64,000 nucleotides of DNA from Chthoniobacterales bacterium (GTDB lineage Bacteria; Verrucomicrobiota; Verrucomicrobiia; Chthoniobacterales; UBA10450). The notes below the pieces were generated by a model. The model searched no databases. It was given only the letters and a program-made list of their open reading frames with translations, and was not told the origin of the DNA. The position numbers and the translations under genes are program-made. Location of the stretch: the NCBI GenBank assembly GCA_038198475.1, contig JBBPZW010000122.1, forward strand, positions 1,001 through 65,000, written 5' to 3'. Shown one piece after another: positions 1-64,000 of this stretch; position 1 is the stretch's first letter; each line of letters begins with the position of its first letter.

Positions 1-75
1 CGACTCCTTTTTCTCGTTCTCGTCATCGCCCTCTCGATCGCGATTATCTGGATCGCGACCCATCTGCATTTTTGA
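1..75 (+). CDS. 3-prime end of an upstream CDS (hydrophobic C-terminal helix), partial
   Basis: Frame 1 reads RLLFLVLVIALSIAIIWIATHLHF then TGA at 73-75. It looks like a transmembrane segment. The gene start lies outside the window. Confidence 0.3.
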   Translation, partial: RLLFLVLVIALSIAIIWIATHLHF

Positions 76-130
76 TCCGCCGGCCGCCAGCCGGGTGGCA
101 AAGTCAGCCCAAGCCTGTTAATTGCGCGTG

Positions 131-421
131 ATGTCCACGCCTTCCGACCTCGATGTCGCCCACGTCGCGCGCCTCGCCCGGCTTGAGTTGAGCAAAGAAG
201 AGACGGCCCTTTTCCAAAGCCAGCTCGCGCAAGTCCTGGAGCATGCCGAAAAGCTGCGAGAGGTGGATGTCGAGGGCGTTGAACCCGCGGCGCACGCGTC
301 GCCGCAATTTGATATCCTGCGGACCGACGAAACGCGTCCCGGTTTAACGCAGGAAGAAGCGCTGCGCAACGCGCCGCGCGCCGCGAACGGCCTCTTCATC
401 GTCACCAAAGTGATCGAATGA
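131..421 (+). CDS. gatC: Asp-tRNA(Asn)/Glu-tRNA(Gln) amidotransferase subunit C
   Basis: Translation MSTPSDLDVAHVARLARLELSKEE...GVEP is typical of GatC. The stop overlaps the gatA ATG (ATGA at 418-421). ATG at 131 is preferred over the TTG at 122. Confidence 0.9.
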   Translation: MSTPSDLDVAHVARLARLELSKEETALFQSQLAQVLEHAEKLREVDVEGVEPAAHASPQFDILRTDETRPGLTQEEALRNAPRAANGLFIVTKVIE

Positions 422-1878
422 CGCCGCGCGATCTTCCCGGCCTAACGATCGCCGAGTTGCAGAAAGTTTTGCGCGCACGCGAGGTCACGCCGCGCGAAGT
501 GCTGGTGGCGCTGGAGGAACGCATCGAACGGCTCGAGCCGAAAATCGGCGCCTATCTTTCGCGCGACCTCGATACCGCCCTCGCGGCCGCCGATACGGTC
601 GATGTGAATCTGCCGTTAGGCGGAGTTCCGCTCGCGATCAAGGACGCGATTAGCGTCGCGGGGCAGCCCTGCACCTGCGCCTCCCGCATCCTGCGCGATT
701 ACCGGGCGCTCTTCGACGCAACCGTCATTTCGAAGCTGAAGGCGGCCGGGGCGATTCCCTTCGGCAAAACAAACCTGGATGAGTTTGCGATGGGTTCCTC
801 AACCGAGAACTCGAGCGTCAAACCAACCCGCAATCCCTGGGATCCGACCCGAATTCCGGGCGGCTCAAGTGGTGGCTCGGCCGCGGCGGTCGCCGCCGGG
901 ATGGCGATTGGTTCGTTAGGCTCGGATACCGGCGGTTCCATTCGCCAACCGGCGGCGCTCTGCGGCGCGGTCGGCCTTAAGCCGAGCTACGGCCGCGTCT
1001 CGCGCTACGGTCTCGTGGCTTTTGCCTCCTCGCTCGACCAGGTCGGTCCGATCACTAAAACAGTGCGCGATTCCGCGCTTGTCCTGCAGGCGATGGCGGG
1101 CCTCGACCCTAACGATTCCACTTCCCTCGACGCGCCAGTGCCGGACTTCACCGCGGCGCTGGAAAAAGATCTTCACGGCGTCCGGCTCGGTTTGCCCCGG
1201 GAATATTTAAGCGACGGGATCGACCCCGACGTGCGATCGGCGATCGACGTCGCGATCGCGCAGTTCGGTTCGTTAGGCGCAGAGATGGTTGAAGTTTCCC
1301 TGCCGCATACCCATTACGCGATCGAGACTTACTACATCATCGCAACCGCGGAAGCGTCGGCCAACCTGGCCCGCTTTGACGGTGTGCGTTACGGCTACCG
1401 CGCGGACAATCCGCAGAACCTGCTCGACCATTACAGCCGCACGCGCGCGGAAGGATTTGGGCTGGAAGTGAAACGCCGGATTATCCTCGGGACCTACGTT
1501 CTCAGCTCCGGCTATTACGATGCGTACTATCTGCGCGCGCAGAAAGTGCGAACCCTCATCCGGCAGGACTTCGCGCGCGTTTTCGAGAGAGTGGATGCGT
1601 TAATCTCGCCGACCACGCCCGGGCCAGCCTTCAAAATCGGTGAGCGCTCGAGCGATCCGTGGCGAATGTACCTGGCCGACATTTTTACCATCGCCGCCAA
1701 TCTCGCGGGGATTTGCGCAATCAGCGTTCCCTGCGGCTTCGCCCTCAGCGCGGAAGGAACGCAATTGCCGATCGGCCTGCAAGTCCTTGGACCGTCGTTA
1801 GGCGAAGCGCGCATCCTGCAGGTCGCGCAGGCGTTCGAGCAAAGCACCGACTGGCACCAACGCCGGCCGCCCGTCTAA
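418..1878 (+). CDS. gatA: Asp-tRNA(Asn)/Glu-tRNA(Gln) amidotransferase subunit A (amidase family)
   Basis: 486 aa with the amidase signature GGSSGGSAAAVAAG and GSDTGGSIRQPAA. It is coupled to gatC. Confidence 0.95.
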   Translation: MTPRDLPGLTIAELQKVLRAREVTPREVLVALEERIERLEPKIGAYLSRDLDTALAAADTVDVNLPLGGVPLAIKDAISVAGQPCTCASRILRDYRALFDATVISKLKAAGAIPFGKTNLDEFAMGSSTENSSVKPTRNPWDPTRIPGGSSGGSAAAVAAGMAIGSLGSDTGGSIRQPAALCGAVGLKPSYGRVSRYGLVAFASSLDQVGPITKTVRDSALVLQAMAGLDPNDSTSLDAPVPDFTAALEKDLHGVRLGLPREYLSDGIDPDVRSAIDVAIAQFGSLGAEMVEVSLPHTHYAIETYYIIATAEASANLARFDGVRYGYRADNPQNLLDHYSRTRAEGFGLEVKRRIILGTYVLSSGYYDAYYLRAQKVRTLIRQDFARVFERVDALISPTTPGPAFKIGERSSDPWRMYLADIFTIAANLAGICAISVPCGFALSAEGTQLPIGLQVLGPSLGEARILQVAQAFEQSTDWHQRRPPV

Positions 1879-3227: not shown

Positions 3228-3300
3228 GTGAAGAATTTCCGCCTAACGAAAAGCCTTTCGGCGAGACCGATCGGGGGCGCATCTGCGAAACAATGGAAGG

Positions 3301-3963
3301 ATGCAATTCCTGGACCGAGCCGATGCCGGCCGATATCTCGCGCGCGAGCTGGAACCCTGGCGCGGGCAGCCCGGGCTTCTCGTGCTTGCGTTGCCGCGCG
3401 GCGGCGTGCCGGTGGCTTACGAGATTGCGCGGGCCTTGTCCGCGCCGCTCGACGTCTTCGTGGTGCGAAAGCTGGGCGTCCCGGGACGGGAGGAGCTTGC
3501 GATGGGCGCGGTCGCGTCCGGCGGTGTGCGGGTCTTGAATGAGGATGTGATCGCCGCGCTCGGGCCGCGCGCGCACGAGGCAATCGAACAGGCCATCAGG
3601 CGTGAAACCGAAGAGCTACGCCGGCGCGAGGAACGCTACCGCGGGGCGCGCGCTTTCCCCGATCTGGCGGGCCGGACGGTCATCCTGGTGGACGACGGTT
3701 TGGCGACCGGCGCCACGATGCGCGCGGCTGCCCGCGCGGTGCGTCAACGTCGGCCCGCGCGACTGATCATTGCCGTCCCGGTCGCATCGCAGACGACTTG
3801 TCGCGAGATGCAAGATGAGGCGGACGATGTCGTCTGCGGGATGATCCCCGAGGCATTTTTCGGGGTCGGCCAGTTCTACGAAAACTTCCGCCAGACGACG
3901 GACGAAGAAGTGCAATCCTACCTGGGACAAACAGGACACCAAACGACCGAGCCTAACGAATAA
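3301..3963 (+). CDS. phosphoribosyltransferase family protein
   Basis: Contains the PRPP-binding motif VILVDDGLATGATM and N-terminal FxDRxxAGxxLA, typical of type I PRTase-like proteins. Confidence 0.75.
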   Translation: MQFLDRADAGRYLARELEPWRGQPGLLVLALPRGGVPVAYEIARALSAPLDVFVVRKLGVPGREELAMGAVASGGVRVLNEDVIAALGPRAHEAIEQAIRRETEELRRREERYRGARAFPDLAGRTVILVDDGLATGATMRAAARAVRQRRPARLIIAVPVASQTTCREMQDEADDVVCGMIPEAFFGVGQFYENFRQTTDEEVQSYLGQTGHQTTEPNE

Positions 3964-4014: not shown

Positions 4015-5104
4015 GTGAAACGTGCGCTTTTTTATTCTCTCGGTCTACTCTCCATGGGGACGGCTTTTTCGACCCCGGCCGATCTCGCGACCTTGGAAAT
4101 GGTCGCGAGCTTCCCTAATCAGCAGGTAACCGGGATTGCCGTTTCCAAGCACGGACGGATCTTCGTCAATTTCCCGAATTGGTCCGACGATCACACTCTC
4201 TCCGTTGCGGAAATTATCGATGGAAAACCGGTCCCCTACCCGAACGAAGAATGGAATCGAGCGGGCACGCCGGACAAGCATTTCGTCTGTGTTCAAAGTG
4301 TCTTCGTCGACGAGAGCGATAGCCTTTGGATTCTCGACCCGGCGGCTCCGAAGATGAAAGAGATCGTCAAGGGCGGGCCGAAACTCGTGAAAGTCGACCT
4401 GGTAAAGAATGCGATCGTGCAGACGATCCCGTTTAGCGAACAGGTCGCGCCGAAAATGAGTTATCTGAATGACGTCCGGGTCGACACCAAAGCCCAGACC
4501 GCCTTTATCACCGATTCGGGCCTCGGCGCGATCATTGTGTTAGACCTGCGGACCGGAAAAGCGCGGCGGGTCCTGGAGGACGATCATTCCACCAAGGCGG
4601 AAAAGGACTTCAAGTTGCAGGTAAAAGGCCGCGAACTGCTGGGAGATAATGGAAAACCACCGCAGATCCATTCCGATGGCATCGCCCTGGATGCCCTGAA
4701 TGTTTCTCTACTACCACGCCCTCACCGCGCACACCCTCTACCGAATCAAGACAGCCGACCTGCAGAATAATCGCCTAACGAGCAGTCAGCTAAAGACCAA
4801 AGTCGAAACCGTGGTCGAAACCCCCGCTCCGGACGGGATGATTATGGGACCGAACGGAAAGCTCTACCTGACCGATGTGGAACATGGCGCGGTCGTGGGA
4901 TTCGATCCGAAGGAGGAAAAACTGCAGCCGATCGCAGCCGACGGTCGTCTCGTCTGGCCCGACAGCTTGGCCTGGGGACCGGACGGCGCGCTCTACGTCA
5001 CCACCTCTCAGATTCAGGAGATGCCGCGGTTCAATGGCGGCAAGGATATGCGAACACTCCCATATCACGTCTATAAGATTGTAGGCGCACTGAACGCACC
5101 GTAG
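4015..5104 (+). pseudogene. major royal jelly protein/yellow-like secreted beta-propeller protein, disrupted by a frameshift near 4695-4705
   Basis: Two overlapping ORFs (4015-4770 and 4700-5104) together read as one MRJP/yellow-type protein: signal peptide, FVDESDSLWILD, DGIALD then LYYHALTAHTLYRI. The frame changes inside ...IALDALN|FLYYHAL... Confidence 0.6.
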
Positions 5105-6748: not shown

Positions 6749-6923
6749 ACGGCGCACGTCCGGGAAAAGCATATTCGTTAGGCCAGGTTGCCGACACCTG
6801 CTGCTGCTTCTTGTTCAACAGGATTCCGTCCGCGTCTCGAACTGTCGGCTTTAAGTCCTAACGCTGCCTTCCTCCTGCGCTTTATAACTTGATTGTTACC
6901 TAACCTAACGAAGCAAGAAACCA

Positions 6924-10070: not shown

Positions 10071-10096
10071 CCTTGGGAATCAGGCTAATCTGCAGG

Positions 10097-14494: not shown

Positions 14495-14989
14495 TTAGCA
14501 TACCAGCTGCAGATAGACAACGTCGAGCCGGCGTCCAAACTTGCTCCCTACCTGGCGGAGCCGGCCCGCCTCCGCCAAGCCTAACGAATTCAATAATCGA
14601 ATCATCCCGACCGACTCTTCGCAGCAAGCCGCCAGGATGGTGTGATAGCCCAATGCGCGGGCGCGCTCGATCAGATCCTGCACGATGACGCGACCGTGTC
14701 CGCTGCGCTGCGCATCGTGCCGCACATAGGCTGTTAACTCGACCGTGTCCCGGTAGGCGCAACGCGAGCGAAAAGGCGAGAGCGCGCCCCAGCCCACAAT
14801 TTCACCGTCGATTTCAAGCACGGTCACCGGCTGATTGACCGGTCGCGTGTGCAGTTCCTCCGTGCGCTCTTGCGTTGTCTCATCATCAACCTGGAAGGTG
14901 GCCGCGGAGGTGCGGACGTAATGGTTGTAGATCGTGTTGATCGCCTCCGCGTCAGCCACGGTCGCGAGCCGGGTGCGGCGATTTTCCAT
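14495..14989 (-). CDS. GNAT N-acetyltransferase, phosphinothricin-acetyltransferase-like (ArsN-type context)
   Basis: MENRRTRLATVADAEAINTIYNHYV...GHGRVIVQDLIERARALGYHTI is typical of the PAT/GNAT family. Its start overlaps the arsC stop (TAATG). Confidence 0.8.
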   Translation of the reverse strand: MENRRTRLATVADAEAINTIYNHYVRTSAATFQVDDETTQERTEELHTRPVNQPVTVLEIDGEIVGWGALSPFRSRCAYRDTVELTAYVRHDAQRSGHGRVIVQDLIERARALGYHTILAACCEESVGMIRLLNSLGLAEAGRLRQVGSKFGRRLDVVYLQLVC

Positions 14990-15432: not shown

Positions 15433-15450
15433 GGAAGCTCGGCAGATGGA

Positions 15451-15804: not shown

Positions 15805-16256
15805 TCGCCTAACGACAGCAGGCAGACGCTGTTGTCCCGGCTTCCGGCTCCGCACTTTTGCTTAGCCAGGCAATCAGTGTGCCTGGAGCCAAGTCTAAAT
15901 TCCAGGTGTTCACCGGCCGCGTGTGCCTCGGCGATCGGATACTGCGAGACCACGCAACAATCCCATTCCACTTCCACTTCCAAGTCATCGTTAGGCAGAA
16001 CCGGGCGACCAAGCTCGAGGATATCGGCGAAGCGCTGGGCTTTCAGGCGGTGCTCGAAATCTTCCGCCACATAGGTTTGCAGGACGCAAGCTTCGCGTTC
16101 ACGGAAGGTGCCGCCGCAATCGACAAATTTCTTCGCGACGTGTCCGACCTCGGTGAGGTGAAAGTGGGCCGGGATTTGTTCGCCGTCCGGCAGCACGAAA
16201 CGAGGCAACGCCTCGGGATTGGCGCGCAGAATCGACTTCAATTCATGCAATTTCAT
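15801..16256 (-). CDS. DUF6428-like protein, first gene of the ars operon
   Basis: MKLHELKSIL...LPDGEQIPAHFHLTEVG...FVDCGGTFRE...TDCLA matches my recollection of the DUF6428 family seen in ars operons. Confidence 0.7.
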   Translation of the reverse strand: MKLHELKSILRANPEALPRFVLPDGEQIPAHFHLTEVGHVAKKFVDCGGTFREREACVLQTYVAEDFEHRLKAQRFADILELGRPVLPNDDLEVEVEWDCCVVSQYPIAEAHAAGEHLEFRLGSRHTDCLAKQKCGAGSRDNSVCLLSLGE

Positions 16257-16310: not shown

Positions 16311-16502
16311 TCAGAGCTTCGTCTGACGCAGCCGTAGAGCGTTCCCGATAACCGAGACGGAACTCAAACTCATCGCCGCACCGGCGATGATCGGACTGAG
16401 GAGAATGCCAAACCAGGGATAGAGAATGCCGGCGGCGATCGGTATGCCTAACGAGTTGTAGATAAACGCAAAGAAGAGGTTTTGGCGAATGTTGCTCATC
16501 AT
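16311..16502 (-). pseudogene. orphan 3-prime fragment of a copper P-type ATPase gene (last 63 codons of copA)
   Basis: 59 of 63 residues in the translation [63 protein letters not shown] are identical to the C-terminus of the intact CopA at 31800-34268. No upstream ATPase sequence is present. Confidence 0.85.
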
Positions 16503-47055: not shown

Positions 47056-48371
47056 GAGTGGTCGTGGTCCATTGGTTCTTTTGGTTTTTCGTTCGGTGAA
47101 TCAGCCCCCGAGATGGTGGAGGCGACGGTGCCGGGCGGGTTTTTGTACCAGCCCGGATCGTCATAGGTAGTAATGCCTTCGCGCACTTTGAAGATGGTAA
47201 ACATGCCACCCATCTCGATCGGACCGAACTGGCCGGTGCCGACCATCATGGGAAGCGTGTTGCGCGGGCCGGGCATCATATCGGCCATCTCCGACATCCC
47301 ATACATGCCGGTCTCGCCCATGGCCATGTAACCCGGAACGAGTTTGCCGATCTTTTGCGCCACCCCTTTTTGATTCATGCCAATGACGTTGGGAACGTTA
47401 TGGCTCATCGCGTTCATAGCGTGATGATTCTTATGGCAATGCATCGGCCAGTCTCCCGGGTTATCCGCGATAAATTCAACGGTGCGGGTGGTGCCCGGCG
47501 GAACGTTAATGGTCGTCTCCGGGACCCACGCGCTCTTTTGAATCTCGCCGCCGTCGGTCCCGGCCAGATACCAGCGGTGCCCGTGGAAATGGATCGGATG
47601 ACTGTCCATGCTCAGGTTGGCGAAGCTAATCCTGACCCGGTCGCCTAACTTCACGACTAATGGGTCAGTCCCGGGCCAAACCCGGCTGTTGAAAGTGAAG
47701 ATATTGAAATCCGTCATCACGTTAGGATCGGGCGTAAAGGTGCCCGGGTGGATCGCCCATTCCTGGAGAAAGGTGAGGAAGTGTCGATCGACTGGCTCGG
47801 GATACCCGCCGCGTGGATGGATGATAAAGAAGCCTTCCATCCCCATCGCCATTTGGATCATTTCATCCGAATGCGGATGATACATCTGCGCGCCGTGCTG
47901 GCGGAGGGTGAACTCATAAAGATAAGTCTCGCCGGGAGGAATGTGTTTTTGGGTGACGCCGCCGACACCATCCATTCCGTTGGCCGCGATGACACCGTGC
48001 CAATGGACCGTGGTCGGTTCGGCCAGCTTGTTTGTGACCAGGATGCGGACGCGATCGCCTTCGACCGCTTCGATGGTGGGTCCGGGAGATTGACCGTTAT
48101 AACCCCAGCAGTTGACGATCATGCCCGGCGCGAACTCCCGCTTCACCGGCTCGGCGATAAGATGAAACTCCTTGACGCCATCTTTCATAACCCAGGGCAG
48201 GCTGGACCCGTTAGGCGTAACGACTGGCCTGTAGTTCACCCTGGCGCCGGGTGCCGGCGTCGGAGTTGCCTGGGCGGCGAGAAGATTTGATCCGGCCGCG
48301 ATGCGTTGTGCGAGCGTGGAAGCGCCCACCAGCGCCGCTGCTCCCGAGAAAAATCTGCGTCGTGTAATCAT
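47052..48371 (-). CDS. Tat-exported multicopper oxidase
   Basis: Twin-arginine signal MITRRRFFSGAAALVGAS. Copper motifs VHWHGV, YHPHSD, HPIHFHGH, MHCHKNHH. Met-rich C-terminus. ATG at 48371 is preferred over the TTG at 48392. Confidence 0.85.
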   Translation of the reverse strand: MITRRRFFSGAAALVGASTLAQRIAAGSNLLAAQATPTPAPGARVNYRPVVTPNGSSLPWVMKDGVKEFHLIAEPVKREFAPGMIVNCWGYNGQSPGPTIEAVEGDRVRILVTNKLAEPTTVHWHGVIAANGMDGVGGVTQKHIPPGETYLYEFTLRQHGAQMYHPHSDEMIQMAMGMEGFFIIHPRGGYPEPVDRHFLTFLQEWAIHPGTFTPDPNVMTDFNIFTFNSRVWPGTDPLVVKLGDRVRISFANLSMDSHPIHFHGHRWYLAGTDGGEIQKSAWVPETTINVPPGTTRTVEFIADNPGDWPMHCHKNHHAMNAMSHNVPNVIGMNQKGVAQKIGKLVPGYMAMGETGMYGMSEMADMMPGPRNTLPMMVGTGQFGPIEMGGMFTIFKVREGITTYDDPGWYKNPPGTVASTISGADSPNEKPKEPMDHDHS

Positions 48372-51463: not shown

Positions 51464-52621
51464 ATGAGCACGATCAACGCCGAAACCGCCGTCAGGGAAC
51501 GTTACGCCGCGGGAGCCAAAGCCGCCGAGGCCAAGCTTTGCTGCCCGGTCGATTACAACCCCGAATATCTCAAAGTCATCCCGCAGGAAGTGATCGAGCG
51601 CGACTACGGCTGCGGCGACCCGAGCAAGTATCTCCGCGCCGGCGAGACGGTGCTCGATCTCGGGAGCGGCACGGGCAAGATCTGTTTCATCGCCGCGCAG
51701 GTCGTTGGGCCTAACGGAAAGGTGATCGGGATCGACATGACCGACGAAATGCTCGAGGTCGCTCGGACAAACGCCCCGATCGTGGCCGAGCGGATCGGTT
51801 ACAACAACGTCGAGTTCCGCAAAGGCCGCATCCAGGATCTGGCGCTCGATCTGGAAAAGCTCGACGCGGAATTGCAGGCACGCCCGATCACCGACGGCGC
51901 CTCCTTCCTCCGCGCCGATGAGCTCGCCCAGGACTTGCGGGTCAAACACCCGCTTGTCGCGACCGACTCAATCGACGTCGTGGTTTCCAATTGCGTCCTC
52001 AACCTGGTGGAGCCGAAGTCGAAACGGCAGTTGTTCGAGGAGATCTTTCGCGTCCTGAAAAAAGGCGGGCGTGCCGTCATCTCCGACATCGTGTCCGATG
52101 AAGAAGTGCCGGAACATTTGCAGACCGACCCGGAACTCTGGAGCGGCTGCATCTCGGGCGCGCTGACCGAGGAAGGATTCCTCCAGGCCTTCAGCGAGGC
52201 CGGCTTCTACGGGATCCAGATTCTGAAACGAGACGAGCAGCCGTGGCAGACGGTCGAAGGCTTCGAGTTCCGCAGCCTCACGATTGAGGCTTTCAAGGGG
52301 AAACAAGGCCCCTGCTTCGAGCGCAACCAGGCGGTGATTTATCGCGGGCCCTTCCGCGAAGTGCTCGACGACGACAGCCACCGGATGGAGCGCGGCGTGC
52401 GCTACGCGGTGTGCGACAAGACCTACAACCTGTATCGCAAAGCGCCCTACGCCGAGTTCTTCGAATTCGTCGAACCGCGCATCGACACCCCGTTAGGCGA
52501 GGCGAAGCCCTTCGACTGCTCGCGCACCACGCGACGGCACCCGAAAGAAACCAAAGGCCAGGACTACAACGTCACAACCGAAGCCAGCAGCTCCTGCTGC
52601 GACGGCGGCAGCTGCTGTTAG
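51464..52621 (+). CDS. arsM: arsenite S-adenosylmethionine methyltransferase
   Basis: Conserved cysteines (LCCPVDY, YGCGDP, SGCISG), SAM motif VLDLGSGTG, and a Cys-rich tail [11 protein letters not shown]. Confidence 0.85.
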
Positions 52622-52696
52622 GTAGCGCAAGCTTCCAGCTTGCAGAATCTATCGCGTCCCGCGCCTGCGGGAGAAAGTCGCGCCGCCGAAAGACTC

Positions 52697-55297
52697 TCAG
52701 GCTTTCCGCACCCGACAGGCGAAACATTTGTAGGCTTGCTGCCCGGAGAGATTATCGAAATAGCGATCGTCGAGGAGCAGATTCGCCGGCTCGTAACGAG
52801 GGTCGCCGAACTCATCTCCCATCACTTGCGCAGGCCCGAAAGTGTTAGGGACAAAGATGGTGTCCTCGCGAATTCCATCCCAAAGAAGCGCGGTGCCCGT
52901 GACCGACCCGCGCGGACTCTCGACCACAATCTTATCCCCCTGCTCGACGCCGGCCTTTTTGGCGGAGTTGGGATGGATCTGCACCAGGCGAATGCCGTTC
53001 ATTTGTTTGCCGTCGTAAGTCCATTGCGTCACGCCCGCGAAGTGGACCACACTCGGGCGTCCGACCATTCCCATGAGCGGGAATTTCTCGTGCACCGCGC
53101 CGTTGCTCAGCGCCCCCAGCTTTACGTTAGGCGTGACATTCCGGGGATTGATCGGATTTTGCACCAGCTCAGTCGAATACTCGATCGAGGCGTTTTTTCC
53201 GGTCACTTCCGGATGGGTGTAAAAGATGGGCAGCGCGTGATGGCCTGCGGTGGCCAGTTTCGCGTCCAGCTCCGGAGTGAAAATTTCGATCTTGCCGCTC
53301 GCGGTTAGGAAACGCTTGCCTTTGTTCTTCGGATCGAGCGACTCGGCCGCTTCGTACCAGGAGGGATGATCGAGATAGAGTGTGCTCACGCCCGGATGCT
53401 TTTCGTAAGGGCAGGGCCAGCGCAGCGGTTCCGCCCGCTTTTCCATCCGCGCCTGGGTCATCCCACCGACGCCCGGCGTACGGGCAACAAATTCTGCCCA
53501 AAGTTTCGAATACGATTTCCATCCCGCACGCAGGTTATCGGTCCAGTATTCCGGCGGATTCTTCCGGTCGAGCTTCGCCATCGCGGCGGCGAGATCGATC
53601 CAGATTTCGATATCGGTTTTCACTTCGCCGAGGCGCGGAACGGCAGCGTGTTGCCAGCGAATCGAGCGATCATCGCGCCGCATATAAACGCCATCCATCT
53701 CGAAGCCGCTCGGGACCGGCAGAATGACATCGGCAAAATAGGCCGCCTCTTCCATGAAGAGCCCGGTGAAGACGTAAAACTCGAGTTGCTTGAACGCTTC
53801 CCGCACCTTGCTCGTGTTGGCCGAACCGAGGATCGGATTGCCTTCGGTGACGATGGCTTTGAGCTGGTAGGGGCGTTTGTGCAGGATCGACTCCGCAAAC
53901 CAATCCGGCCCCACCGGGAGCGCTTCTCCTTTCTGCGGCGTAACGACGGGCGCTGCGCGGTTTACCGGCGCCATGGCATCGGCGCGCCCCCCCGCGGCGT
54001 TATCCGCCGGCTGGTCGACCGCGCCGGCCGGCCGGCTGACCAGTTCCGGCAGATTTAGTCCGCCCGGCCATGTGTTGTGCATGAAGTTACAACCGCCGCC
54101 GTTCACTCCGATGTTGCCGGTGATCGCGGCGAGAAACGCCAGCGTGCGATAGGTGTCAAACGCGCTCAGTTGATGTGAAATGCCGGCATTGCAGAAGATC
54201 GCAGCTGGTTTCGCCCTGGCGTAGCCCTCGGCGATGGCGCGAATCTTTGCCGCCGGAATCGTCGTCACGCTCTCGGCCCATTCCGGAGTGTAATTTTTCT
54301 CCGCGAGATGCTTCTTCAGTTCGTCGAAACCGAGGACCCATTTCGCGACGAACGCCTTGTCATAAAGATCTTGCCTAACGATGTGCCCGAGCATCCCGAG
54401 GACGAGCGCCATGTCGGTGTGCGGCTTGGGCGCAATCCATTCGTCCGCCTGCGCGCCGGTCGGGGTGAGCCGCGGATCGATCACGACCAGCTCCGCCTTC
54501 GTCTTCGCGCGCTCGCGCAGGAGATAGGCAAAGGTGACCGGATGCGTCTCGGCCTGATTCGTCCCGAGGAAAAGAAAATATTTCGCCGCCCCCAGATCTT
54601 CCCGGCCGGTGTTTTCGTCTTTGCCGTAGCCGTTGGTGAAGTTGCCCATCCCGAACGTGGCGGCGAGGGCATTTCCGCCGGCGTCGTTGCAGACCGGGCC
54701 GACATCGGTGTCGTTAGGCGAACCGAGTAGGGTGAAGAAGCGGCCGATGATCGAGCCGGTCCCGCGTTGGAGCCGGCCGCTCGTTTTGTTCGCGATGGCG
54801 TGCGCTTCACCCGCGTCACGCAAAGCGAGAAACTTTTTCGCGACCGTCTCGAGCGCTTCGTCCCACGAGCAGGGCTCGAATTTCGAATCGGGCGACCCCT
54901 TTTCGCCGCCGACGCGCTTCATCGGCTTGGTCAGGCGAAACCGGTTGTAGTAGAGCTGGGTCATCATCGGCCCCTTCACGCAAAGGCCGCCGTCCTGCAC
55001 CGGGTCCGCCGTCTCGCCGAGGACATCGATGATGCGGCCGTCTTTTAGGTGCACCTTGAGCCGGCAATTCGAATTGCAAAACTGGCAGGCGCTGTCGACG
55101 ATCGTGTCGGGCTGGAGTGCGCTGGAGGATTTGGTGAAATCGAAGCCGGCGGGCGGTGGCACGTTTTGCGGGAACAGCCCCTCCGCACCGGCTTGTGCGC
55201 TGCGGTTGAGCAGCGGCGCCGCGCCGACCGCGAGCGAGCCGATGAGACCGCCTCGCAAAAATTTCCGGCGCGAAAAAGAGGATGGATCTTCAGACAT
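52697..55297 (-). CDS. Tat-exported molybdopterin oxidoreductase (DMSO reductase superfamily), substrate unknown
   Basis: Twin-arginine signal SRRKFLRGG. An N-terminal 4Fe-4S motif CQFCNSNC...C. 866 aa with a C-terminal molydopterin_dinuc_bdg-like region. Confidence 0.85.
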   Translation of the reverse strand: MSEDPSSFSRRKFLRGGLIGSLAVGAAPLLNRSAQAGAEGLFPQNVPPPAGFDFTKSSSALQPDTIVDSACQFCNSNCRLKVHLKDGRIIDVLGETADPVQDGGLCVKGPMMTQLYYNRFRLTKPMKRVGGEKGSPDSKFEPCSWDEALETVAKKFLALRDAGEAHAIANKTSGRLQRGTGSIIGRFFTLLGSPNDTDVGPVCNDAGGNALAATFGMGNFTNGYGKDENTGREDLGAAKYFLFLGTNQAETHPVTFAYLLRERAKTKAELVVIDPRLTPTGAQADEWIAPKPHTDMALVLGMLGHIVRQDLYDKAFVAKWVLGFDELKKHLAEKNYTPEWAESVTTIPAAKIRAIAEGYARAKPAAIFCNAGISHQLSAFDTYRTLAFLAAITGNIGVNGGGCNFMHNTWPGGLNLPELVSRPAGAVDQPADNAAGGRADAMAPVNRAAPVVTPQKGEALPVGPDWFAESILHKRPYQLKAIVTEGNPILGSANTSKVREAFKQLEFYVFTGLFMEEAAYFADVILPVPSGFEMDGVYMRRDDRSIRWQHAAVPRLGEVKTDIEIWIDLAAAMAKLDRKNPPEYWTDNLRAGWKSYSKLWAEFVARTPGVGGMTQARMEKRAEPLRWPCPYEKHPGVSTLYLDHPSWYEAAESLDPKNKGKRFLTASGKIEIFTPELDAKLATAGHHALPIFYTHPEVTGKNASIEYSTELVQNPINPRNVTPNVKLGALSNGAVHEKFPLMGMVGRPSVVHFAGVTQWTYDGKQMNGIRLVQIHPNSAKKAGVEQGDKIVVESPRGSVTGTALLWDGIREDTIFVPNTFGPAQVMGDEFGDPRYEPANLLLDDRYFDNLSGQQAYKCFACRVRKA

Positions 55298-55299
55298 AA

Positions 55300-56094
55300 T
55301 TAAAATGGAATGACGATGTCGGCTTTCAAGGTGACGGACGGGCTCGATCCGTTGCTCGGAAAATTTCCCCAGGTTTCGAAAACAAGGTATTTGCAGATGG
55401 GCACGAGGACGCCGGCGGAATAGAGCCAGTCGTCCCGGTTGTGTTGCTTCACCGCATCGGCTCGCAGGGTAAATAGGTCACGCGTCACCAGCGACGAATT
55501 GGGGTCGCCCGAGCCCGGCCCCTGCCCTTCTCCGGCTACCGTCGATTCCCGGGTCGTGACCGATTTTCCATCGCTCACGGCAACGAGCTTCCTGCGCGTC
55601 AGCTTGAAGGTCTTGTCCAGTCCCACGAAAGGCAGGGCGTCGCCATCCTGGATCCCGCAACCCGCGGTCACACGAAGGAATCCGAAGTCTTCGGTCAGCA
55701 CGCCATAGCCAAACGGCTGCCCCGATCGATCGCGCTGATGATCGGTGAAGGCGAGATTGGCTATGCCGCCGGCGATCGTGGGCAGATGGTCGCCTAACGG
55801 ATAGGCAACCTTCGTCTGCACGACCGCCGGGCCGCCCAGGCCGGGATAAACATGGCTGTCCGCGCCGAACTCGAAACGGAGCGGATTAATTTCGAGCCCG
55901 GTCTTAAAACCAAAATTCAGATCATCGCGGGCGTCGCCCCCCACGGTGCTGAAGGTTTGCAGAACGAGCGTCCCTTGCGGCGCGGTGTCGGCAGTGGGGA
56001 TGTTGTTGAGGCCGCTCGGGGTCGCGAGCGCCAGTTGTGGCAGAGCGGAGAGCAGGAGAGTGAAAGCAAGCGGACGAAAGAGAGATTTTGACAT
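55300..56094 (-). CDS. putative outer-membrane beta-barrel protein
   Basis: Signal peptide, alternating beta-strand-like pattern, C-terminal ...ADIVIPF. The stop lies 3 nt before the molybdoenzyme start. Confidence 0.55.
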   Translation of the reverse strand: MSKSLFRPLAFTLLLSALPQLALATPSGLNNIPTADTAPQGTLVLQTFSTVGGDARDDLNFGFKTGLEINPLRFEFGADSHVYPGLGGPAVVQTKVAYPLGDHLPTIAGGIANLAFTDHQRDRSGQPFGYGVLTEDFGFLRVTAGCGIQDGDALPFVGLDKTFKLTRRKLVAVSDGKSVTTRESTVAGEGQGPGSGDPNSSLVTRDLFTLRADAVKQHNRDDWLYSAGVLVPICKYLVFETWGNFPSNGSSPSVTLKADIVIPF

Positions 56095-56183
56095 CGGTGG
56101 ATTCTGATTCTATGCGCAGATAGGCATATTTAAATTTGAATTTTCTTGTCGAGTCAAAATTAAAATCACTTTACGCTGCCGTG

Positions 56184-56489: not shown

Positions 56490-56587
56490 AGGCCGCCTCT
56501 GAATATTTTGCGTCCAACGCCTTTCTCACCTCGTAGTTTCACAAGCCGACGCTCCAACATCTGCCCATCAATTATCAGCCTAACGAA

Positions 56588-57436: not shown

Positions 57437-58371
57437 GTTCGGCATCGGCGCGACCTGTGCTGCCGCTGGCCACCCGCGGACGCGCTCCCAGCCTAACGAA
57501 AAGCGCGAGCTTCGCCTTCAGCGCTCTCGCGCTGCTGACCCTGGCGACGCTCGTCCTGATCTTCCTCGTGCAAAGCCTGCCGGTATGGCGGCAGGAAGGG
57601 CTCGGCTACATCACAGGCACGAAGTGGTTTTATCGCGCCAACATTTTTGGAGCGCTCCCGATGATCTACGGCACGATCGTGGTCGCCTTCATCGCGCTGC
57701 TCCTGGCCGCGCCGATTGGGATCGGAGCCGCCGTTTTCACCTCCGAATTTCTCCCGCAACGAATGCGCCTCGCGGTCAAAATCACGATCGAGCTCCTCGC
57801 TGGCGTGCCCTCGGTCGTTTACGGGCTGCTCGGGATCCTGTTTCTGCGCAACTGGATTTACGATCTCTTCGCTCGTTTCGAGCCGCTCAGCGGCGACACG
57901 CTCCTGACCGCCGGCGTCTTGTTAGGCGTGATGATTCTCCCCACCGTCATGACCCTGGCCGACGATGCCCTGCGCGGGGTGCCGGCCGACCAACGGCGGG
58001 CCGCGCGCAGTCTCGGACTCAACGCGACCGAGACAGTGCTCGGGGTTGCGCTGCCGCAGGCAAAACGCGGTTTGATCGCCGCGCTCTTGCTCGGGCTGGG
58101 CCGTGCGCTCGGCGAGACGATCGCGGTCTTTCTCGTCGTTGGGCGGCAGGATAATAATCTTCCGGAAAATATTTTCTCGGTCCACGCCTGGCTCGAAGCC
58201 GGGCAAACTCTTTCGACGAAACTGGGCGGCTCGGAGACCAACATCGCCTACGGCGGGTCGCTGCATTGGGCGGCGATGGTCGGGCTTGCCTTGATCCTGA
58301 TGGCGATGGTGCTCGCGGTCACCATGGCCGGCGCATGGCAACGGAGGACGAACGATGCGGCGAGTCTCTAA
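57433..58371 (+). CDS. pstC: phosphate ABC transporter permease PstC
   Basis: Six TM segments and an EAA-like loop. The GTG start overlaps the pstS stop. Confidence 0.85.
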   Translation: MSSASARPVLPLATRGRAPSLTKSASFAFSALALLTLATLVLIFLVQSLPVWRQEGLGYITGTKWFYRANIFGALPMIYGTIVVAFIALLLAAPIGIGAAVFTSEFLPQRMRLAVKITIELLAGVPSVVYGLLGILFLRNWIYDLFARFEPLSGDTLLTAGVLLGVMILPTVMTLADDALRGVPADQRRAARSLGLNATETVLGVALPQAKRGLIAALLLGLGRALGETIAVFLVVGRQDNNLPENIFSVHAWLEAGQTLSTKLGGSETNIAYGGSLHWAAMVGLALILMAMVLAVTMAGAWQRRTNDAASL

Positions 58372-60014: not shown

Positions 60015-60970
60015 ACCGTTTTGCTGCCAAGCTCGTCGAGCACTCGTTGCCCTTGCGGCACACGAAGACGGAGATCCTACAGATCAACGTCGGCAAACTC
60101 TGCAACCTGACCTGCATTCATTGCCACGTGAACGCCGGGCCGAAACGGAAAGAGATCATGACCCGCGAAACGATCGATCGGCTGATCGATTGGCTCGCCA
60201 AAACCGACATCCCGACCGTCGACCTGACCGGCGGCGCGCCGGAGATGATTCCCGACTTCAAGTATTTCGTCGAACGCCTGAAAGCGCTTACTCCACCGCG
60301 GCACATCATCGACCGCTGCAACCTCACGATCCTGCTCGAGCCCGGCTTTGAGGATTATGCCGAATTCCTCGCGCGGCACCAGATCGAGATCATCGCTTCG
60401 ATGCCCTGTTACACGCCGGAAAACGTCAACGAACAACGCGGGAACGGCGTCTTCGACGCCAGCATCAAGGGGCTGCAACTTTTGAATTCGTTAGGCTATG
60501 GGATCGATCCCGCGCTTCCGCTCCATCTCGTTTACAATCCGAACGGCGCCTTTCTCCCCGGCCCGCAGGCGGAACTGGAAGCGGATTACAAACGCGAATT
60601 GAAAGATCATTTCGGGATTGTCTTCAACAAACTCTTCACCATCACTAATCTCCCGATCGCACGCTTCGCCTCCTGGTTAAAAAACAACAACCAGCTCGGC
60701 GATTACATGCTCCTCCTAAACGACGCCTTTAACCCGGGCACCGTGAACGGCCTGATGTGCCGGAACACGATCAACGTCAGCTGGCAGGGCGAAGTCTTCG
60801 ACTGCGACTTTAACCAGATGCTCAAGATGCAATGGCGCGAAGGCGCTGGCGGCCTGCATCTCTGGGACGTCGACCCTGGTCAAGTCGAGCACCGCGAAAT
60901 CCAGACCGGCGAACACTGCTTCGGCTGCACCGCAGGCTCGGGCTCGAGCTGCGGCGGCGCGCTCCTCTAG
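60011..60970 (+). CDS. arsS: arsenosugar biosynthesis radical SAM protein ArsS-like
   Basis: CNLTCIHCHVNAGP (CX3CX2C radical SAM) and a Cys-rich C-terminus HCFGCTAGSGSSCGG. The GTG at 60011 overlaps the pstB stop; an alternative ATG lies at 59963. Confidence 0.8.
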   Translation: MNRFAAKLVEHSLPLRHTKTEILQINVGKLCNLTCIHCHVNAGPKRKEIMTRETIDRLIDWLAKTDIPTVDLTGGAPEMIPDFKYFVERLKALTPPRHIIDRCNLTILLEPGFEDYAEFLARHQIEIIASMPCYTPENVNEQRGNGVFDASIKGLQLLNSLGYGIDPALPLHLVYNPNGAFLPGPQAELEADYKRELKDHFGIVFNKLFTITNLPIARFASWLKNNNQLGDYMLLLNDAFNPGTVNGLMCRNTINVSWQGEVFDCDFNQMLKMQWREGAGGLHLWDVDPGQVEHREIQTGEHCFGCTAGSGSSCGGALL

Positions 60971-60980: not shown

Positions 60981-61955
60981 CTAAGGCGTCAGCTCCCAGG
61001 TGTCGCCTAACGGAACTTCCCTGTTCTGTCCGCCGAAGAGGACGATGCGGCCAAGCGCCTTGTCGTAAGCCATTCCGGCGCCTTCGCGCGCCGGCGGCGA
61101 AAGGGAAGGAAATAGTTCGACCCAATTCGAACCGGTCCATGACCAGGTCCGGTCTTGATCAACTCCCCCGTCCCCGCCGCCGAAGAGGATAACGCTATTC
61201 AGGTTCGGCTCGAATGCAGCGGAAGCGGCGTAGACAGTGAGGGGTTGCATGGCGGGCGATTCCATCGTCCAGGTCGTCCCGTCATATGTCCACGTGTTGA
61301 GAGGATTCACGTCGCCCAGACCGCCGTAAAGGACGACCTGCTTCGAGACGTTGTCTACACCGACCGCGGATGACGAGCGCGCATACGGGAGCATGGAGGC
61401 GTGCACCTGTCTCCAATCCGAACCGTTCCACTCCCACATGGTGTTTTCGTAAAGGTTGCCGGAGAAGCCACCGAACTCATCGACCCGGCCGCGCAGCCCG
61501 GTGAAAACCATCGGACCCGTTACCGCTTTTGGTGAATGAGCGGGAGTGGCCTGGGTCCAGGTGGAATTACGTCCGTCCCAGAGCCAGGTGTCGCCCAGGT
61601 CGGAGTGGCCGTCGTAGCCACCGAAGAGGACCACCTTTTGAGTGCGACGGTCATAAGCCATTTGCGCATTCGTCCGTTTAGGCGGAGCCACGGCCGTATC
61701 CACTTTCGTCCAAGTGTTACCGTCGTAGGTCCAGGTATCGTTGAGGTAACCCGTGTCGCTATAGCCGCCGAAAACGAGAATCTTACCGCTCGCTTCATCG
61801 TAGGTCATGGCGACATAGGAACGCGCTCCCGGAGAAGTGGCCGGCGAAACCTGAGTCCAGGTAAGAGTTGCAGGGTTAGCGATTGCCGAACCAGCGAACA
61901 AAAGGGGGACCAGACAGGTCGGCGCAAGAAGAGACAAGATTCGGTTCAGTTTCAT
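60981..61955 (-). CDS. secreted Kelch-repeat protein
   Basis: Signal peptide and six repeats of the (V/L)FGG...ND(T/L)W..(D/N) type. Confidence 0.75.
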   Translation of the reverse strand: MKLNRILSLLAPTCLVPLLFAGSAIANPATLTWTQVSPATSPGARSYVAMTYDEASGKILVFGGYSDTGYLNDTWTYDGNTWTKVDTAVAPPKRTNAQMAYDRRTQKVVLFGGYDGHSDLGDTWLWDGRNSTWTQATPAHSPKAVTGPMVFTGLRGRVDEFGGFSGNLYENTMWEWNGSDWRQVHASMLPYARSSSAVGVDNVSKQVVLYGGLGDVNPLNTWTYDGTTWTMESPAMQPLTVYAASAAFEPNLNSVILFGGGDGGVDQDRTWSWTGSNWVELFPSLSPPAREGAGMAYDKALGRIVLFGGQNREVPLGDTWELTP

Positions 61956-62077
61956 GTGCGATCTTCGTATCGTGTCAACCCTCTGGTGTCAAGATCGACG
62001 AACGGACAACTAGCCGGCTATTTCAGCCATCCCGATGATCACTGGTTTGCTCCACCGGGTGACTGCGTTATGCTGCG

Positions 62078-62145
62078 AGAGGGTAATGGAGTTTGCCTTC
62101 CTCGCGGGTGCGGGGAAAACCGCCTGAGCTGATGACTCCTACTGC
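62078..62145 (+). ncRNA. fluoride riboswitch (crcB motif)
   Basis: AGGGUAAUGGAGUUUGCCU ... AAAACCGCCUGAGCUGAUGACUCCUACUG matches the conserved crcB-motif blocks (AUGGAGUU, AACCGCC, GCUGAUGACUCCUAC). GGAGU/ACUCC can form the pseudoknot. It lies about 40 nt upstream of crcB. Confidence 0.8.
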
Positions 62146-62181
62146 TGCTTCAGATATGGGAAGCGACGGTTGGAGGTTTTC

Positions 62182-62571
62182 ATGCTCACATATTTTTGGA
62201 TCATGTTTGGAGGCGCGCTTGGAACTGGCGCCCGTTTTTGGGCCTCGGGCCTGGTGGCGGAGCGCTTCGGTGAAGTCTTTCCGCTTGGCACCTTGCTGGT
62301 CAACGTCACTGGCTCGTTCATTATCGGCTTTTTCGCCGGGCTGACAGATCCGGGGGGGCCATATCTGGTCAGCCCACGCATCCGACAGTTTGTCATGATC
62401 GGAATTTGCGGCGGCTACACCACTTTCTCCTCCTTTAGTCTGCAGACCCTGGAGCTGGCACGAGAAGGCGATTGGTTCCGGGCTGGCTTGAACAGTGTCC
62501 TCTCGCTGGTTTGCTGCCTGCTCGCGGTCTGGCTTGGACGCGCTCTCGCGCTTATCCTGCTTCCTCGTTAG
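62182..62571 (+). CDS. crcB: fluoride channel CrcB/FEX
   Basis: GGALGTGARF, TLLVNVTGSFIIG and GGYTTFSSF motifs. About 129 aa. Confidence 0.9.
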   Translation: MLTYFWIMFGGALGTGARFWASGLVAERFGEVFPLGTLLVNVTGSFIIGFFAGLTDPGGPYLVSPRIRQFVMIGICGGYTTFSSFSLQTLELAREGDWFRAGLNSVLSLVCCLLAVWLGRALALILLPR

Positions 62572-62581
62572 GCTAACCCTT

Positions 62582-62938
62582 ATGCAACTTCCCGAAGACG
62601 CCATGCTCCTGCGGGTCTTTGTCGGCGAAAGCGATCGCTGGCAACACCAGCCGCTCTACGAAGCGATCGTGCTCAAAGCCCGCGCCCTCCAACTCGCCGG
62701 CGCAACCGTCCTGCGCGGGCCGATGGGTTTCGGCGCACATAGCCGAATTCACACCGCAAAGATTCTGCGGCTCTCGATGGACCTGCCAATCGTGATCGAG
62801 ATCGTCGACACGGAAGAAAAAGTGAAATCACTCCTCCCGTTTCTCGACGAAATGATGAATGGTGGTCTCGTCACCCTGGAGAAGGTAAAGGTCATCCACT
62901 ATAACGAGGGATCGAAAGGCAAGGCCGGCCCGGCCTAA
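62582..62938 (+). CDS. DUF190 domain protein (crcB-associated)
   Basis: LLRVFVGESDRWQHQPLYEAIV...GATVLRGPMGFG...LPIVIEIVD is typical of DUF190. Confidence 0.8.
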   Translation: MQLPEDAMLLRVFVGESDRWQHQPLYEAIVLKARALQLAGATVLRGPMGFGAHSRIHTAKILRLSMDLPIVIEIVDTEEKVKSLLPFLDEMMNGGLVTLEKVKVIHYNEGSKGKAGPA

Positions 62939-63031
62939 CGATTACAACGATCGGCCAGTGCTCGGCGACGCACAGCCGATCTGCCTTGCGCCGTGCGCGA
63001 CTTTCCGCCGGGATGGGCTAAAAAGATAAAG

Positions 63032-63550
63032 ATGAAACAAACTGCCGTTGTCTGCCTAGTGATCGCGCTGCTTAGCGTCGCGTGCAGCAAACACGAAACC
63101 CCGCCTCCGGCCGTAAGCCCTGCTCCGGCGGTCACAGAGAAACCGCCTGGTGACGGAACGTTGCACTGGCGGACCGATTTCGAGTCCGCGAAAGGCCAGG
63201 CGCACTCAGAGAAAAAGCTGCTGCTGATGCTGTTTACCGGCTCGGATTGGTGTCCGCCCTGCATGATGCTGCAAAAAGAAGTCTTCTCTAAACCGGAATT
63301 CGCCCAATACGCGGCCGAGCACCTCGTCCTGCTTGAAGTGGATTTCCCGCGCCGAAAAAACCTGTCGAACGAGCAGCGGGCGGCCAACGCAAAAGTCGCG
63401 CAACAGTACGGGATCGAAGGTTTCCCGACGGTCATCGTCCTCGATCCGAAGAGCAACCCGCTCGGCAAATTCGGTTACGTCCCGGGCCTGGGGCCGGAGA
63501 AGGTGATCGAAGTCCTGGAAAAAGCGCGGAAGGAGAACGTGGATAAATGA
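63032..63550 (+). CDS. thioredoxin-fold lipoprotein (CPPC active site)
   Basis: Lipobox LLSVACS and FTGSDWCPPCMMLQKEVF. Resembles thioredoxin-like/DUF255-like proteins. Confidence 0.75.
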   Translation: MKQTAVVCLVIALLSVACSKHETPPPAVSPAPAVTEKPPGDGTLHWRTDFESAKGQAHSEKKLLLMLFTGSDWCPPCMMLQKEVFSKPEFAQYAAEHLVLLEVDFPRRKNLSNEQRAANAKVAQQYGIEGFPTVIVLDPKSNPLGKFGYVPGLGPEKVIEVLEKARKENVDK

Positions 63551-63631
63551 TTCGACTTTCTCCGCGCCCGCTCGCGGTGCTGATGGCGAGGGCGCCAAAA
63601 CCGGAAAACTCATTGAGCGTGGCGGCGTAGA

Positions 63632-64000
63632 ATGAAGACAATCGCAGTCCTCGGTGGAGGGTCGGCTGGCTTGACCGCAGCTCGCCTCGCCTCGCAAAAT
63701 GGGGCGCGCGTCCTGTTCTTCATGGGGGACAATGCCGATCACGCCTCGCTCTGCATCAACGCCGGATGCATGCCGTCGAAGGCGCTTTTCGAACCGATCG
63801 ACGCGATGCACCACGCCAAACTGCACGGTTGGCTGGAAGTAAAACCGAAGCAGCCTAACAAGTATCTTGGCCAGATCATGCGCTGGAAAGACAACCAGAT
63901 AGAGAAGTTTCGCGCCTACCGGCAGAAGGAAATTCGCGACCTCGCGAGCGAAACCTTCTCCATCGTCCGTTCGAATGCCTGCTTTGTTGGCGATCACGAA
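63632..64000 (+). CDS. FAD-dependent pyridine nucleotide-disulfide oxidoreductase (class I, CxxxxC), partial
   Basis: My translation is MKTIAVLGGGSAGLTAARLA... (GxGxxG) and CINAGCMPSK (redox-active disulfide). It runs off the window end. Confidence 0.75.
   Translation, partial: MKTIAVLGGGSAGLTAARLASQNGARVLFFMGDNADHASLCINAGCMPSKALFEPIDAMHHAKLHGWLEVKPKQPNKYLGQIMRWKDNQIEKFRAYRQKEIRDLASETFSIVRSNACFVGDHE

Follow-up and report, generated by a model that had tools for sequence, protein, structure and literature searches.

We show that one clade of the Chthoniobacterales (Verrucomicrobiota) has a lineage-specific genomic word, the 9-nt sequence GCCTAACGA (8-mer core GCCTAACG; reverse complement of the 9-mer TCGTTAGGC). 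It was found in a 64,000-nt stretch of a Chthoniobacterales genome, hereafter the window (GenBank assembly GCA_038198475.1, contig JBBPZW010000122.1, positions 1,001 to 65,000), and its frequency in this genome and its relatives is about 20–70 times the expectation. In native double-stranded DNA, the underlying process favours precisely this 9-mer in either orientation, with enough strength to bring in rare codons and occasional amino-acid changes. It does not act on DNA that has newly arrived, and sister lineages differ in its specificity. With a probability of roughly 0.45, we read the word as one of the type of the DNA uptake sequences (DUS) and uptake signal sequences (USS), which would have accumulated by biased uptake and recombination.

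A pattern search finds 32 copies of GCCTAACG in the window, 18 on the plus and 14 on the minus strand, all at the coordinates and in the orientations listed by an initial annotation of this DNA. The expected number is 1.36 (sd 1.1, maximum 4) in 100 dinucleotide-preserving shuffles of the window, and 2.46, 1.33, 1.30 and 1.65 in Markov models of orders 0, 1, 2 and 3, respectively, so the enrichment stands at 32 against 1.3–2.5 in the latter. With z values of 21–27 in the order-1 and order-3 models, GCCTAACG and its one-base shift CCTAACGA exceed all other 8-mers of the window in over-representation. When synonymous codons were shuffled within each gene, preserving the protein sequence and the per-gene codon usage, 1.20 ± 1.09 in-gene copies were expected (maximum 5 in 500) and 27 are observed. 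The density of about one copy per kb given by the annotation was an overestimate, as exact copies outside the defence island described below occur at 0.64 per kb.

The closest GatA proteins are those of Chthoniobacterales metagenome-assembled genomes, and relatives were compared through the DNA around gatA, chosen at graded GatA distance. In about 21.4 kb from each of six related metagenomic genomes (GatA 77–86% identical), the word is present at 0.5–1.35 per kb and in part at orthologous sites. There are 13 copies of GCCTAACG each in L081 (GatA 86%) and L082 (84%), 11 each in L083 and L084 (both 80%), 26 in L085 (78%) and 29 in L089 (77%). In all six, no 8-mer is more over-represented than GCCTAACG or its one-base shift (z up to 51), the ninth base is nearly always A and the orientations are balanced. 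A further locus, L088 (GCA_051003415.1; 18.1 kb, 16 copies), falls in the window's 90% protein cluster and is 96% identical to the window in nucleotides. All nine alignable sites are common to both, and the sole word polymorphism is GCCTGACG at window position 5877 against GCCTAACG at L088 position 11337.

The word ends sharply. Among the 32 aligned copies of the window, position 9 is A in 23 and G in 7, and the other flanking positions carry no information. When the window and the six relatives are taken together (135 sites, the set called pooled hereafter), 83% of the sites have A and 13% have G at position 9, a pyrimidine is weakly preferred at −3 to −1 and nothing is seen further out. The extended consensus first proposed is therefore right, and with such uninformative flanks the word is a sharply bounded 9-mer, not a piece of a longer repeat. 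It differs from its reverse complement, being non-palindromic, and has no palindromic sub-site. One-mismatch variants had been added to the initial evidence; they exist (47 in the window) but as a class they carry no weight, since 43 are expected by chance. In 171 kb from the window and five relatives, the enriched variants are end-position and transition ones alone (GCCTAACA 9.7-fold, A/CCCTAACG about 4.5-fold, GACTAACG 3.4-fold and GCCTGACG 2.2-fold), interior variants being at or below expectation.

On a gene map built from open reading frames, codon scores and Pfam, 26 of the 32 window copies lie inside genes and occupy all four stop-free frames. Eight are read as xxG CCT AAC Gxx (Pro-Asn) and three as xGC CTA ACG (Leu-Thr), while 11 are read on the opposite strand as xCG TTA GGC (Leu-Gly) and four as xxC GTT AGG Cxx (Val-Arg). 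The two stop-containing frames serve as the stop codons of crcB (TAG) and the DUF190 gene (TAA), and the remaining copies are intergenic. The word carries the rare codons TTA, CTA and AGG. TTA makes up 3.8% of the Leu codons, yet Leu-Gly is encoded by TTA-GGC 20 times out of 143 (2.8 expected), and the word is present in 27 of the 111 peptide contexts able to spell it synonymously.

The pooled copies behave likewise: 95 fall into the four frames (30, 27, 22 and 16), 21 overlap a stop codon and the other 19 are intergenic, in DNA with a non-coding share of only 10%. Those inside genes are equally often sense and antisense (49:46), and an RNA-level signal is thereby ruled out. The word thus builds up at the places that the protein code leaves free for it, whichever way it points relative to transcription, and a cause at the DNA level is indicated. 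This had been argued initially from the spread over strands, frames and intergenic DNA, from the same two stop codons and from four gatA Leu-Gly pairs encoded as TTA-GGC, all of which are correct, and it gains from the codon-aware null, the four frames, the intergenic copies and the gatA comparison that follows.

The codons of gatA were aligned among the window, L081–L086, L001 and L002. At sites 440, 614 and 914, the peptides Gly-Leu-Thr, Pro-Leu-Gly and Ser-Leu-Gly are conserved, and the leucine is CTA or TTA in the word-bearing genomes but the common CTC, CTG or TTG in the others including the outgroups. Site 440 is common to L082, L085, L089 and L088 (CTG or CTC for the same peptide in the outgroups), site 614 to L082 and L084 (CTC or CTG in the others), and site 914 to L082, L084 and L085. 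Site 1271 is identical in all aligned genomes but L001, which has one mismatch, and is retained even in the outgroups L086 and L002, at a third-position identity of only 43–57%.

Two gatA sites arose through amino-acid replacement. At site 1796, the window has Ser-Leu-Gly against Ala-Leu-Glu/Asp in the relatives, and at one L085 site Val-Val-Arg-Leu stands against Ile-Ser-Lys-Leu. L082 has four of the five window gatA sites at 78% nucleotide and 52% third-position identity, while at 78% identity we estimate that about 10–14% of 8-mers would stay intact. Outside gatA, most window sites are not common with L082. The word is thus conserved at part of the orthologous positions, and the shared, gained and lost sites together mean that copies are retained yet continuously created and lost, at times at a cost to the protein.

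That the enrichment is a by-product of codon or dinucleotide bias, of a repeated protein motif or of a dispersed repeat such as a miniature inverted-repeat transposable element (MITE), with no cause at the DNA level, can be dismissed for practical purposes. Markov models of orders 5–6 do predict 20–30 copies of GCCTAACG for the window, but they do so because their 6- and 7-mer sub-word counts derive from these very copies. The synonymous-codon shuffle (1.2 against 27) and the dinucleotide shuffles (1.4) contradict a compositional origin. A repeated protein motif is ruled out by the four frames, both strands and the intergenic and stop-codon copies. Repetitive extragenic palindromes (REP), MITEs and other dispersed repeats are ruled out by the near-zero information outside positions 1–9 and by the 70% of pooled copies wholly inside genes. 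None of these explanations, each of which the initial annotation had named as a possible refutation, accounts for the enrichment. A true coding repeat looks different: ACNGCTAC, the apparent word of locus L096, was rejected as clustered and confined to a single strand.

The window has three long gaps in the word. A single copy falls in the 15.2 kb of its defence island, while the remaining 48.8 kb have 31 (binomial p = 0.002). The island's HmaB has its closest homologues, at 75–79% identity, in Betaproteobacteria, Gammaproteobacteria, Acidobacteria, Planctomycetia and Opitutaceae, whereas GatA identity outside the order is at most 61%, so the island is horizontally mobile DNA. Its GC content of 58.3% is similar to the rest of the window and the foreignness is not visible in composition; the case for mobility hence rests on function and on the cross-phylum identity of the homologues. 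The stretch of TonB-dependent receptor, extracytoplasmic function (ECF) sigma factor and tetratricopeptide repeat (TPR) genes at 6924–13882 has no copy at all (p = 0.025), so the density also varies within native DNA.

The lack of strand skew noted initially is confirmed by orientations of 18:14 in the window and 63:71 in the pooled set (p = 0.55), and gatA alone holds both. Polarity was judged within loci; the GC skew of the window is too weak for assigning the replication direction. Neighbouring copies are oriented at random (++ 32, −− 39, +− 27 and −+ 30). Their spacing is irregular, roughly exponential and over-dispersed, with a coefficient of variation of 1.29 and gaps of 8–9 kb. Such spacing is the expectation for a drive limited by tolerance, not for a structural role.

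These orientations bear on a Chi-like self marker, in which the word would modulate a nuclease, either of the RecBCD/AddAB type or from a defence system, with repair of own DNA and degradation of wordless foreign DNA as the outcome. Such a word would likewise be short, non-palindromic, over-represented, lineage-specific and depleted in foreign DNA, and Chi sequences vary between bacterial groups (PMC5861425). We nevertheless regard it, in an unskewed form, as improbable. The known Chi words, architecture imparting sequences (AIMS) and FtsK orienting polar sequences (KOPS) are strand-biased (PMC5861425), and polar words of these kinds are excluded by the lack of skew in the window and six syntenic loci. 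With a 75% bias, the probability of 18 or fewer copies on the major strand of the window would be 0.016, and both orientations occur inside single genes. E. coli Chi is found about once per 4.5 kb, so the 0.5–1.35 per kb here is several times its density.

A recognition word for a translocase in conjugation-like transfer, as with the 8-bp TraB sequences of Streptomyces or the FtsK/SpoIIIE words, would also be a lineage-specific 8–9-mer spread over the chromosome, the TraB/clt repeats being the general analogy. It is very improbable, however, as there is no orientation polarity, the 64-kb window contains no conjugation gene and the density is far above that of the TraB recognition sequences.

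Outside the clade, the word is scarce. The 9-mer has four copies in L090 and one in L091 (both GatA 75%), and the word three in L001 and two in L002 (both 73%). In 18 Udaeobacter-like metagenome loci (GatA 71–74%), nine copies are found in 142 kb, about 0.06 per kb, with four of the nine in one 8.5-kb contig, and unrelated bacteria have 0.006–0.013 per kb. A scan of genome contigs gave only relatives with a GatA identity of 73% or less, and one of metagenome contigs only the Udaeobacter-like ones, most of which lack the word. The few copies in the word-poor outgroups are nearly all full 9-mers. In a glycoside hydrolase 77 gene, GCCTAACGA stands at one orthologous position in L086 (5066), L090 (1226) and L091 (661). 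The retention of full 9-mers at the same orthologous position in word-poor outgroups suggests that GCCTAACGA may predate the clade in which it is hyperabundant.

A sister lineage, L086/L087 (GatA 75%; JGI 3300044827, NCBI GCA_041167045.1), has another hyperabundant word, WAGATCGACAW. The replacement word AAGATCGACA is present there at 1.7 per kb with only three copies of GCCTAACGA, and 21 kb of its DNA hold 36 copies of GATCGACA where 1.3 are expected, in balanced orientations (19:17) and with unconserved flanks. In the window the sister word is not enriched (2 observed against 3.6 expected). GATCGACA often lies at gene starts and ends, for example at L086 positions 1003, 1865, 6492, 7404, 8621 and 11592.

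Run on about 140 unrelated bacterial gatA loci, the same script flagged as comparable in density and z-score only the cyanobacterial highly iterated palindrome HIP1, GCGATCGC, and a close HIP-like variant, CGATCGCG; HIP1, as the positive control, was recovered at 0.5–4.7 per kb. The variant was seen in L031, an 18-kb contig of an uncultured bacterium without a cyanobacterial label, with 30 copies against 1.9 expected.

Our word may be a HIP1-like intracellular site recognised by an abundant sequence-specific DNA-binding or DNA-modifying protein, such as a nucleoid protein or a repair-coupled orphan methyltransferase, and kept frequent by selection or biased repair in the cell, independently of DNA uptake. 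Hyperabundance, occupancy of all frames, orthologous conservation and lineage-specific variants are typical of HIP1 too (PMC5861425, PMC4390886). Even outgroups without enrichment retain one of the gatA sites, and the sister-lineage word contains GATC and TCGA. We consider this explanation unlikely, though it is the main rival. Unlike HIP1 and its variants, GCCTAACGA is non-palindromic down to its sub-sites (PMC5861425). The irregular spacing with its long gaps is contrary to a structural role needing even coverage. Known repair biases have few-fold effects, and a 20–70-fold effect with amino-acid replacements in an essential gene is beyond them. Selection per site would presumably be tiny, whereas a drive would need none.

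The uptake-type reading is favoured because preferential uptake and homologous recombination is the known mechanism with all these consequences, as in DUS and USS. A surface DNA-uptake component, perhaps a minor type IV pilin like that of Neisseria, would bind double-stranded DNA carrying the 9-mer in either orientation. The word-bearing fragments would be preferentially taken up and then recombined into the chromosome, so that word-creating mutations would spread by molecular drive and decayed copies would be replaced. Copies would pile up where the code permits, in rare synonymous codons, Pro-Asn, Leu-Gly, Leu-Thr and Val-Arg pairs, stops and spacers, and DNA newly arrived from other lineages would have none. 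A change of the receptor specificity in the sister lineage would have led to AAGATCGACA, leaving relics only of GCCTAACGA.

By analogy with the known systems, we infer that uptake is biased, that a receptor exists and that the drive is transformation. If so, which we hold to be slightly less than an even bet, the word would mark a third origin of uptake sequences and the first outside the proteobacteria. The initial annotation had likened the word to DNA uptake sequences more than to Chi or KOPS. As a resemblance this is borne out by the absent skew and the unconserved flanks, and further by its being common to relatives, depleted in the mobile island and replaced in the sister lineage.

Several points weigh against it. 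All the properties described would also fit an intracellular recognition of the word as debated for HIP1. Competence genes (ComEA, ComEC, DprA), type IV pilus or pseudopilus genes and a word-specific receptor are absent from the 64-kb window, and the depletion in foreign DNA is based on a single island. Inverted-repeat terminator pairs, common with DUS and USS, are lacking here: no close inverted pair is found, the nearest two copies of opposite orientation in the window being at least 174 bp apart. The sister-lineage word is unrelated in sequence to GCCTAACGA, unlike the dialects of the Neisseriaceae, which differ by 1–2 bases. No case of natural transformation in this phylum is known to us. 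A literature search, with most subscription journals outside its coverage, found nothing on uptake sequences, competence or transformation in Chthoniobacterales or Verrucomicrobiota, and a survey paper on ComEC does not mention the phylum. Within the same coverage, no description of the word was found, in line with the initial annotation, and string matches to the word or its complement were only primers and unrelated sequences.

A broader reading is a genome-wide self-identity word system of Chthoniobacterales, independent of the proteobacterial DUS and USS, whose word could be swapped completely between sister lineages (GCCTAACGA against AAGATCGACA); we think this rather doubtful. In its strongest form, an intracellular component of recombination, repair or defence would read the word to tell own from foreign DNA, which is doubtful to a like degree.

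Table 1. Copies of the word in the window and other features of the window. Strand is that of GCCTAACG for the copies; codons are given as read in the gene.
Feature	Position	Strand	Detail
gatA, sense	440..447	+	GCCTAACG(A); GGC CTA ACG = Gly-Leu-Thr, rare CTA
gatA, antisense	614..621	-	9th base G; CCG TTA GGC = Pro-Leu-Gly
gatA, antisense	914..921	-	GCCTAACGA; TCG TTA GGC = Ser-Leu-Gly
gatA, antisense	1271..1278	-	GCCTAACGA; TCG TTA GGC
gatA, antisense	1796..1803	-	GCCTAACGA; Ser-Leu-Gly
Intergenic, between divergent MFS and phosphoribosyltransferase genes	3241..3248	+	GCCTAACGA
Phosphoribosyltransferase gene, 3' end	3951..3958	+	GCCTAACGA; GAG CCT AAC GAA
Intergenic, 3 nt past stop of gene 4015-4770	4773..4780	+	GCCTAACGA
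Intergenic, after AraC/DJ-1 gene	6776..6783	-	GCCTAACGA
GNAT acetyltransferase gene (- strand), antisense	14579..14586	+	GCCTAACGA; TCG TTA GGC
ArsR-like/DUF6428 gene overlap (- strand), antisense	15807..15814	+	GCCTAACGA; GTT AGG
DUF6428 gene, sense	15989..15996	-	GCCTAACGA; CCT AAC = Pro-Asn
Non-coding, immediately upstream of defence island	16446..16453	+	GCCTAACGA
hmaB, sense	25570..25577	+	CCT AAC; sole copy within Hma/GmrSD island
copA-type ATPase gene, sense	34061..34068	-	GCCTAACGA; CCT AAC
Multicopper oxidase gene, sense	36953..36960	-	9th base C; CTA ACG
cusA-type RND pump gene, antisense	42193..42200	+	9th base G; TTA GGC
cusB-type gene, antisense	44569..44576	+	GCCTAACGA; GTT AGG
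Outer-membrane efflux gene, antisense	45039..45046	+	GCCTAACGA; TTA GGC
Second multicopper oxidase gene, sense	48209..48216	-	9th base G; CCT AAC
SAM methyltransferase gene, sense	51709..51716	+	9th base G; CCT AAC
SAM methyltransferase gene, antisense	52491..52498	-	9th base G; TTA GGC
Molybdopterin oxidoreductase gene, sense	53125..53132	-	9th base T; CCT AAC
Molybdopterin oxidoreductase gene, antisense	54373..54380	+	GCCTAACGA; GTT AGG
Molybdopterin oxidoreductase gene, sense	54712..54719	-	GCCTAACGA; CCT AAC
Gene 55300-56094 (- strand), antisense	55792..55799	+	9th base G; TTA GGC
Intergenic, 3 nt upstream of phosphate-binding protein gene start	56578..56585	+	GCCTAACGA
ABC permease gene, sense	57491..57498	+	GCCTAACGA; CTA ACG
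Radical SAM/DUF3641 gene, antisense	60489..60496	-	GCCTAACGA; TTA GGC
Kelch-repeat gene (- strand), antisense	61005..61012	+	9th base G; TTA GGC
crcB/DUF190 overlap	62566..62573	-	GCCTAACGA; gives crcB stop TAG (62569-62571)
DUF190 gene end	62933..62940	+	GCCTAACGA; gives DUF190 stop TAA (62936-62938)
gatC and gatA	122-1878
Mixed block	1.9-16.3 kb		MFS transporter, phosphoribosyltransferase, AraC/DJ-1 regulators, TonB-dependent receptor, ECF sigma factor, TPR protein, small arsenic-related genes
Defence island	16575-31747	+	PADLOC: Hma system with inserted GmrSD-type enzyme
HmaA	16575-20153		SNF2 helicase with NOV_C domain
GmrSD/HEC-06 type IV restriction gene	20166-21875
HmaB	22994-25885		DUF1156 adenine methylase
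HmaC	28421-31747		HEPN-DUF499 ATPase
Copper-resistance block	31800-50271		CopA-type ATPase with HMBD/YHS domains, CsoR repressor, DUF4396, DUF305, two multicopper oxidases, CusA/CusB/outer-membrane factor, second outer-membrane factor
Arsenic/phosphate block	51.4-61 kb
Fluoride riboswitch	62073-62148	+	Rfam RF01734, 43 bits; directly upstream of crcB
crcB	62170-62571
DUF190 gene, overlapping crcB	to 62938

Besides the genes listed, the defence island has four small genes that are unannotated or of the metallo-beta-lactamase fold. The first 12 kb of the copper-resistance block are low in word density, with three copies. Arsenic-related genes lie in two stretches, 14989–16256 and 51464–60970. 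They comprise a low-molecular-weight phosphatase/ArsC-type gene, two ArsR-type regulators, DUF6428, an ArsM-like S-adenosylmethionine (SAM) methyltransferase, a molybdopterin oxidoreductase and a phosphate-type ABC transporter, together with a radical SAM/DUF3641 protein, whose domain pair occurs in the arsenosugar enzyme ArsS.

New here is a hyperabundant word of the uptake-sequence type in a new phylum, together with its replacement in a sister lineage. If the uptake-type reading is true, sequence-biased DNA exchange would be more widespread than thought, and the contrast of motif-bearing with scrambled DNA would open natural transformation to concrete study in a phylum from which no case is documented. 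The sister lineages with different words or none would offer a natural experiment on word replacement. The hosts are uncultivated and globally abundant soil Verrucomicrobiota, and the word would be usable as a marker for contig binning, for spotting foreign DNA and possibly for designing DNA accepted by these bacteria. Should there be no uptake signal, it would be a second unexplained hyperabundant word beside HIP1, and its asymmetry would constrain the hypotheses.

Among the known systems, the Chi, KOPS and AIMS words resemble GCCTAACGA in being over-represented, lineage-specific and non-palindromic 5–8-mers of the native chromosome, but they are strongly co-oriented with replication and rarer, while no skew is seen in the window and six relatives. 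HIP1 is also a hyperabundant octamer-scale word (0.2–2.7 per kb, 16–300-fold enriched) that occupies all frames, is conserved between genomes above background, has variant words in some lineages and is debated in function. It belongs to another phylum, and an abundance at its level had not been seen outside cyanobacteria according to a 2018 paper (PMC5861425). The HIP words are palindromes with methyltransferase sites (GATC, CGATCG), whereas GCCTAACGA is asymmetric with no such sub-site (PMC5861425).

The Neisseriaceae DUS, such as ATGCCGTCTGAA, and the Pasteurellaceae USS, AAGTGCGGT and ACAAGCGGT, are unrelated to GCCTAACGA in sequence and come from another phylum than the Verrucomicrobiota, words of the uptake-sequence type, and the self-preferring transformation implied by them, being known only from those two families according to a 2025 paper (PMC12616744). 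Their defining feature is the biased binding and uptake of word-carrying DNA by competent cells (PMC12616744). They come with competence and ComP-like or ComN/PpdA-like receptors, while the likeness of the present word is one of genomic signature. Their accumulation has been modelled as molecular drive and their word differs between lineages, and the density, length and other properties found here match their published descriptions (PMC12616744, PMC3630211, PMC2397512, PMC1939737). In these systems as in the present case, a 9–12-nt non-palindromic word occurs roughly once per kb in both orientations, enters coding DNA in the tolerated frames, is in excess at gene ends and spacers and affects the choice of codons and amino acids. 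Here as there, related species have the word in common, lineages have their own versions of it and horizontally acquired DNA contains little of it.

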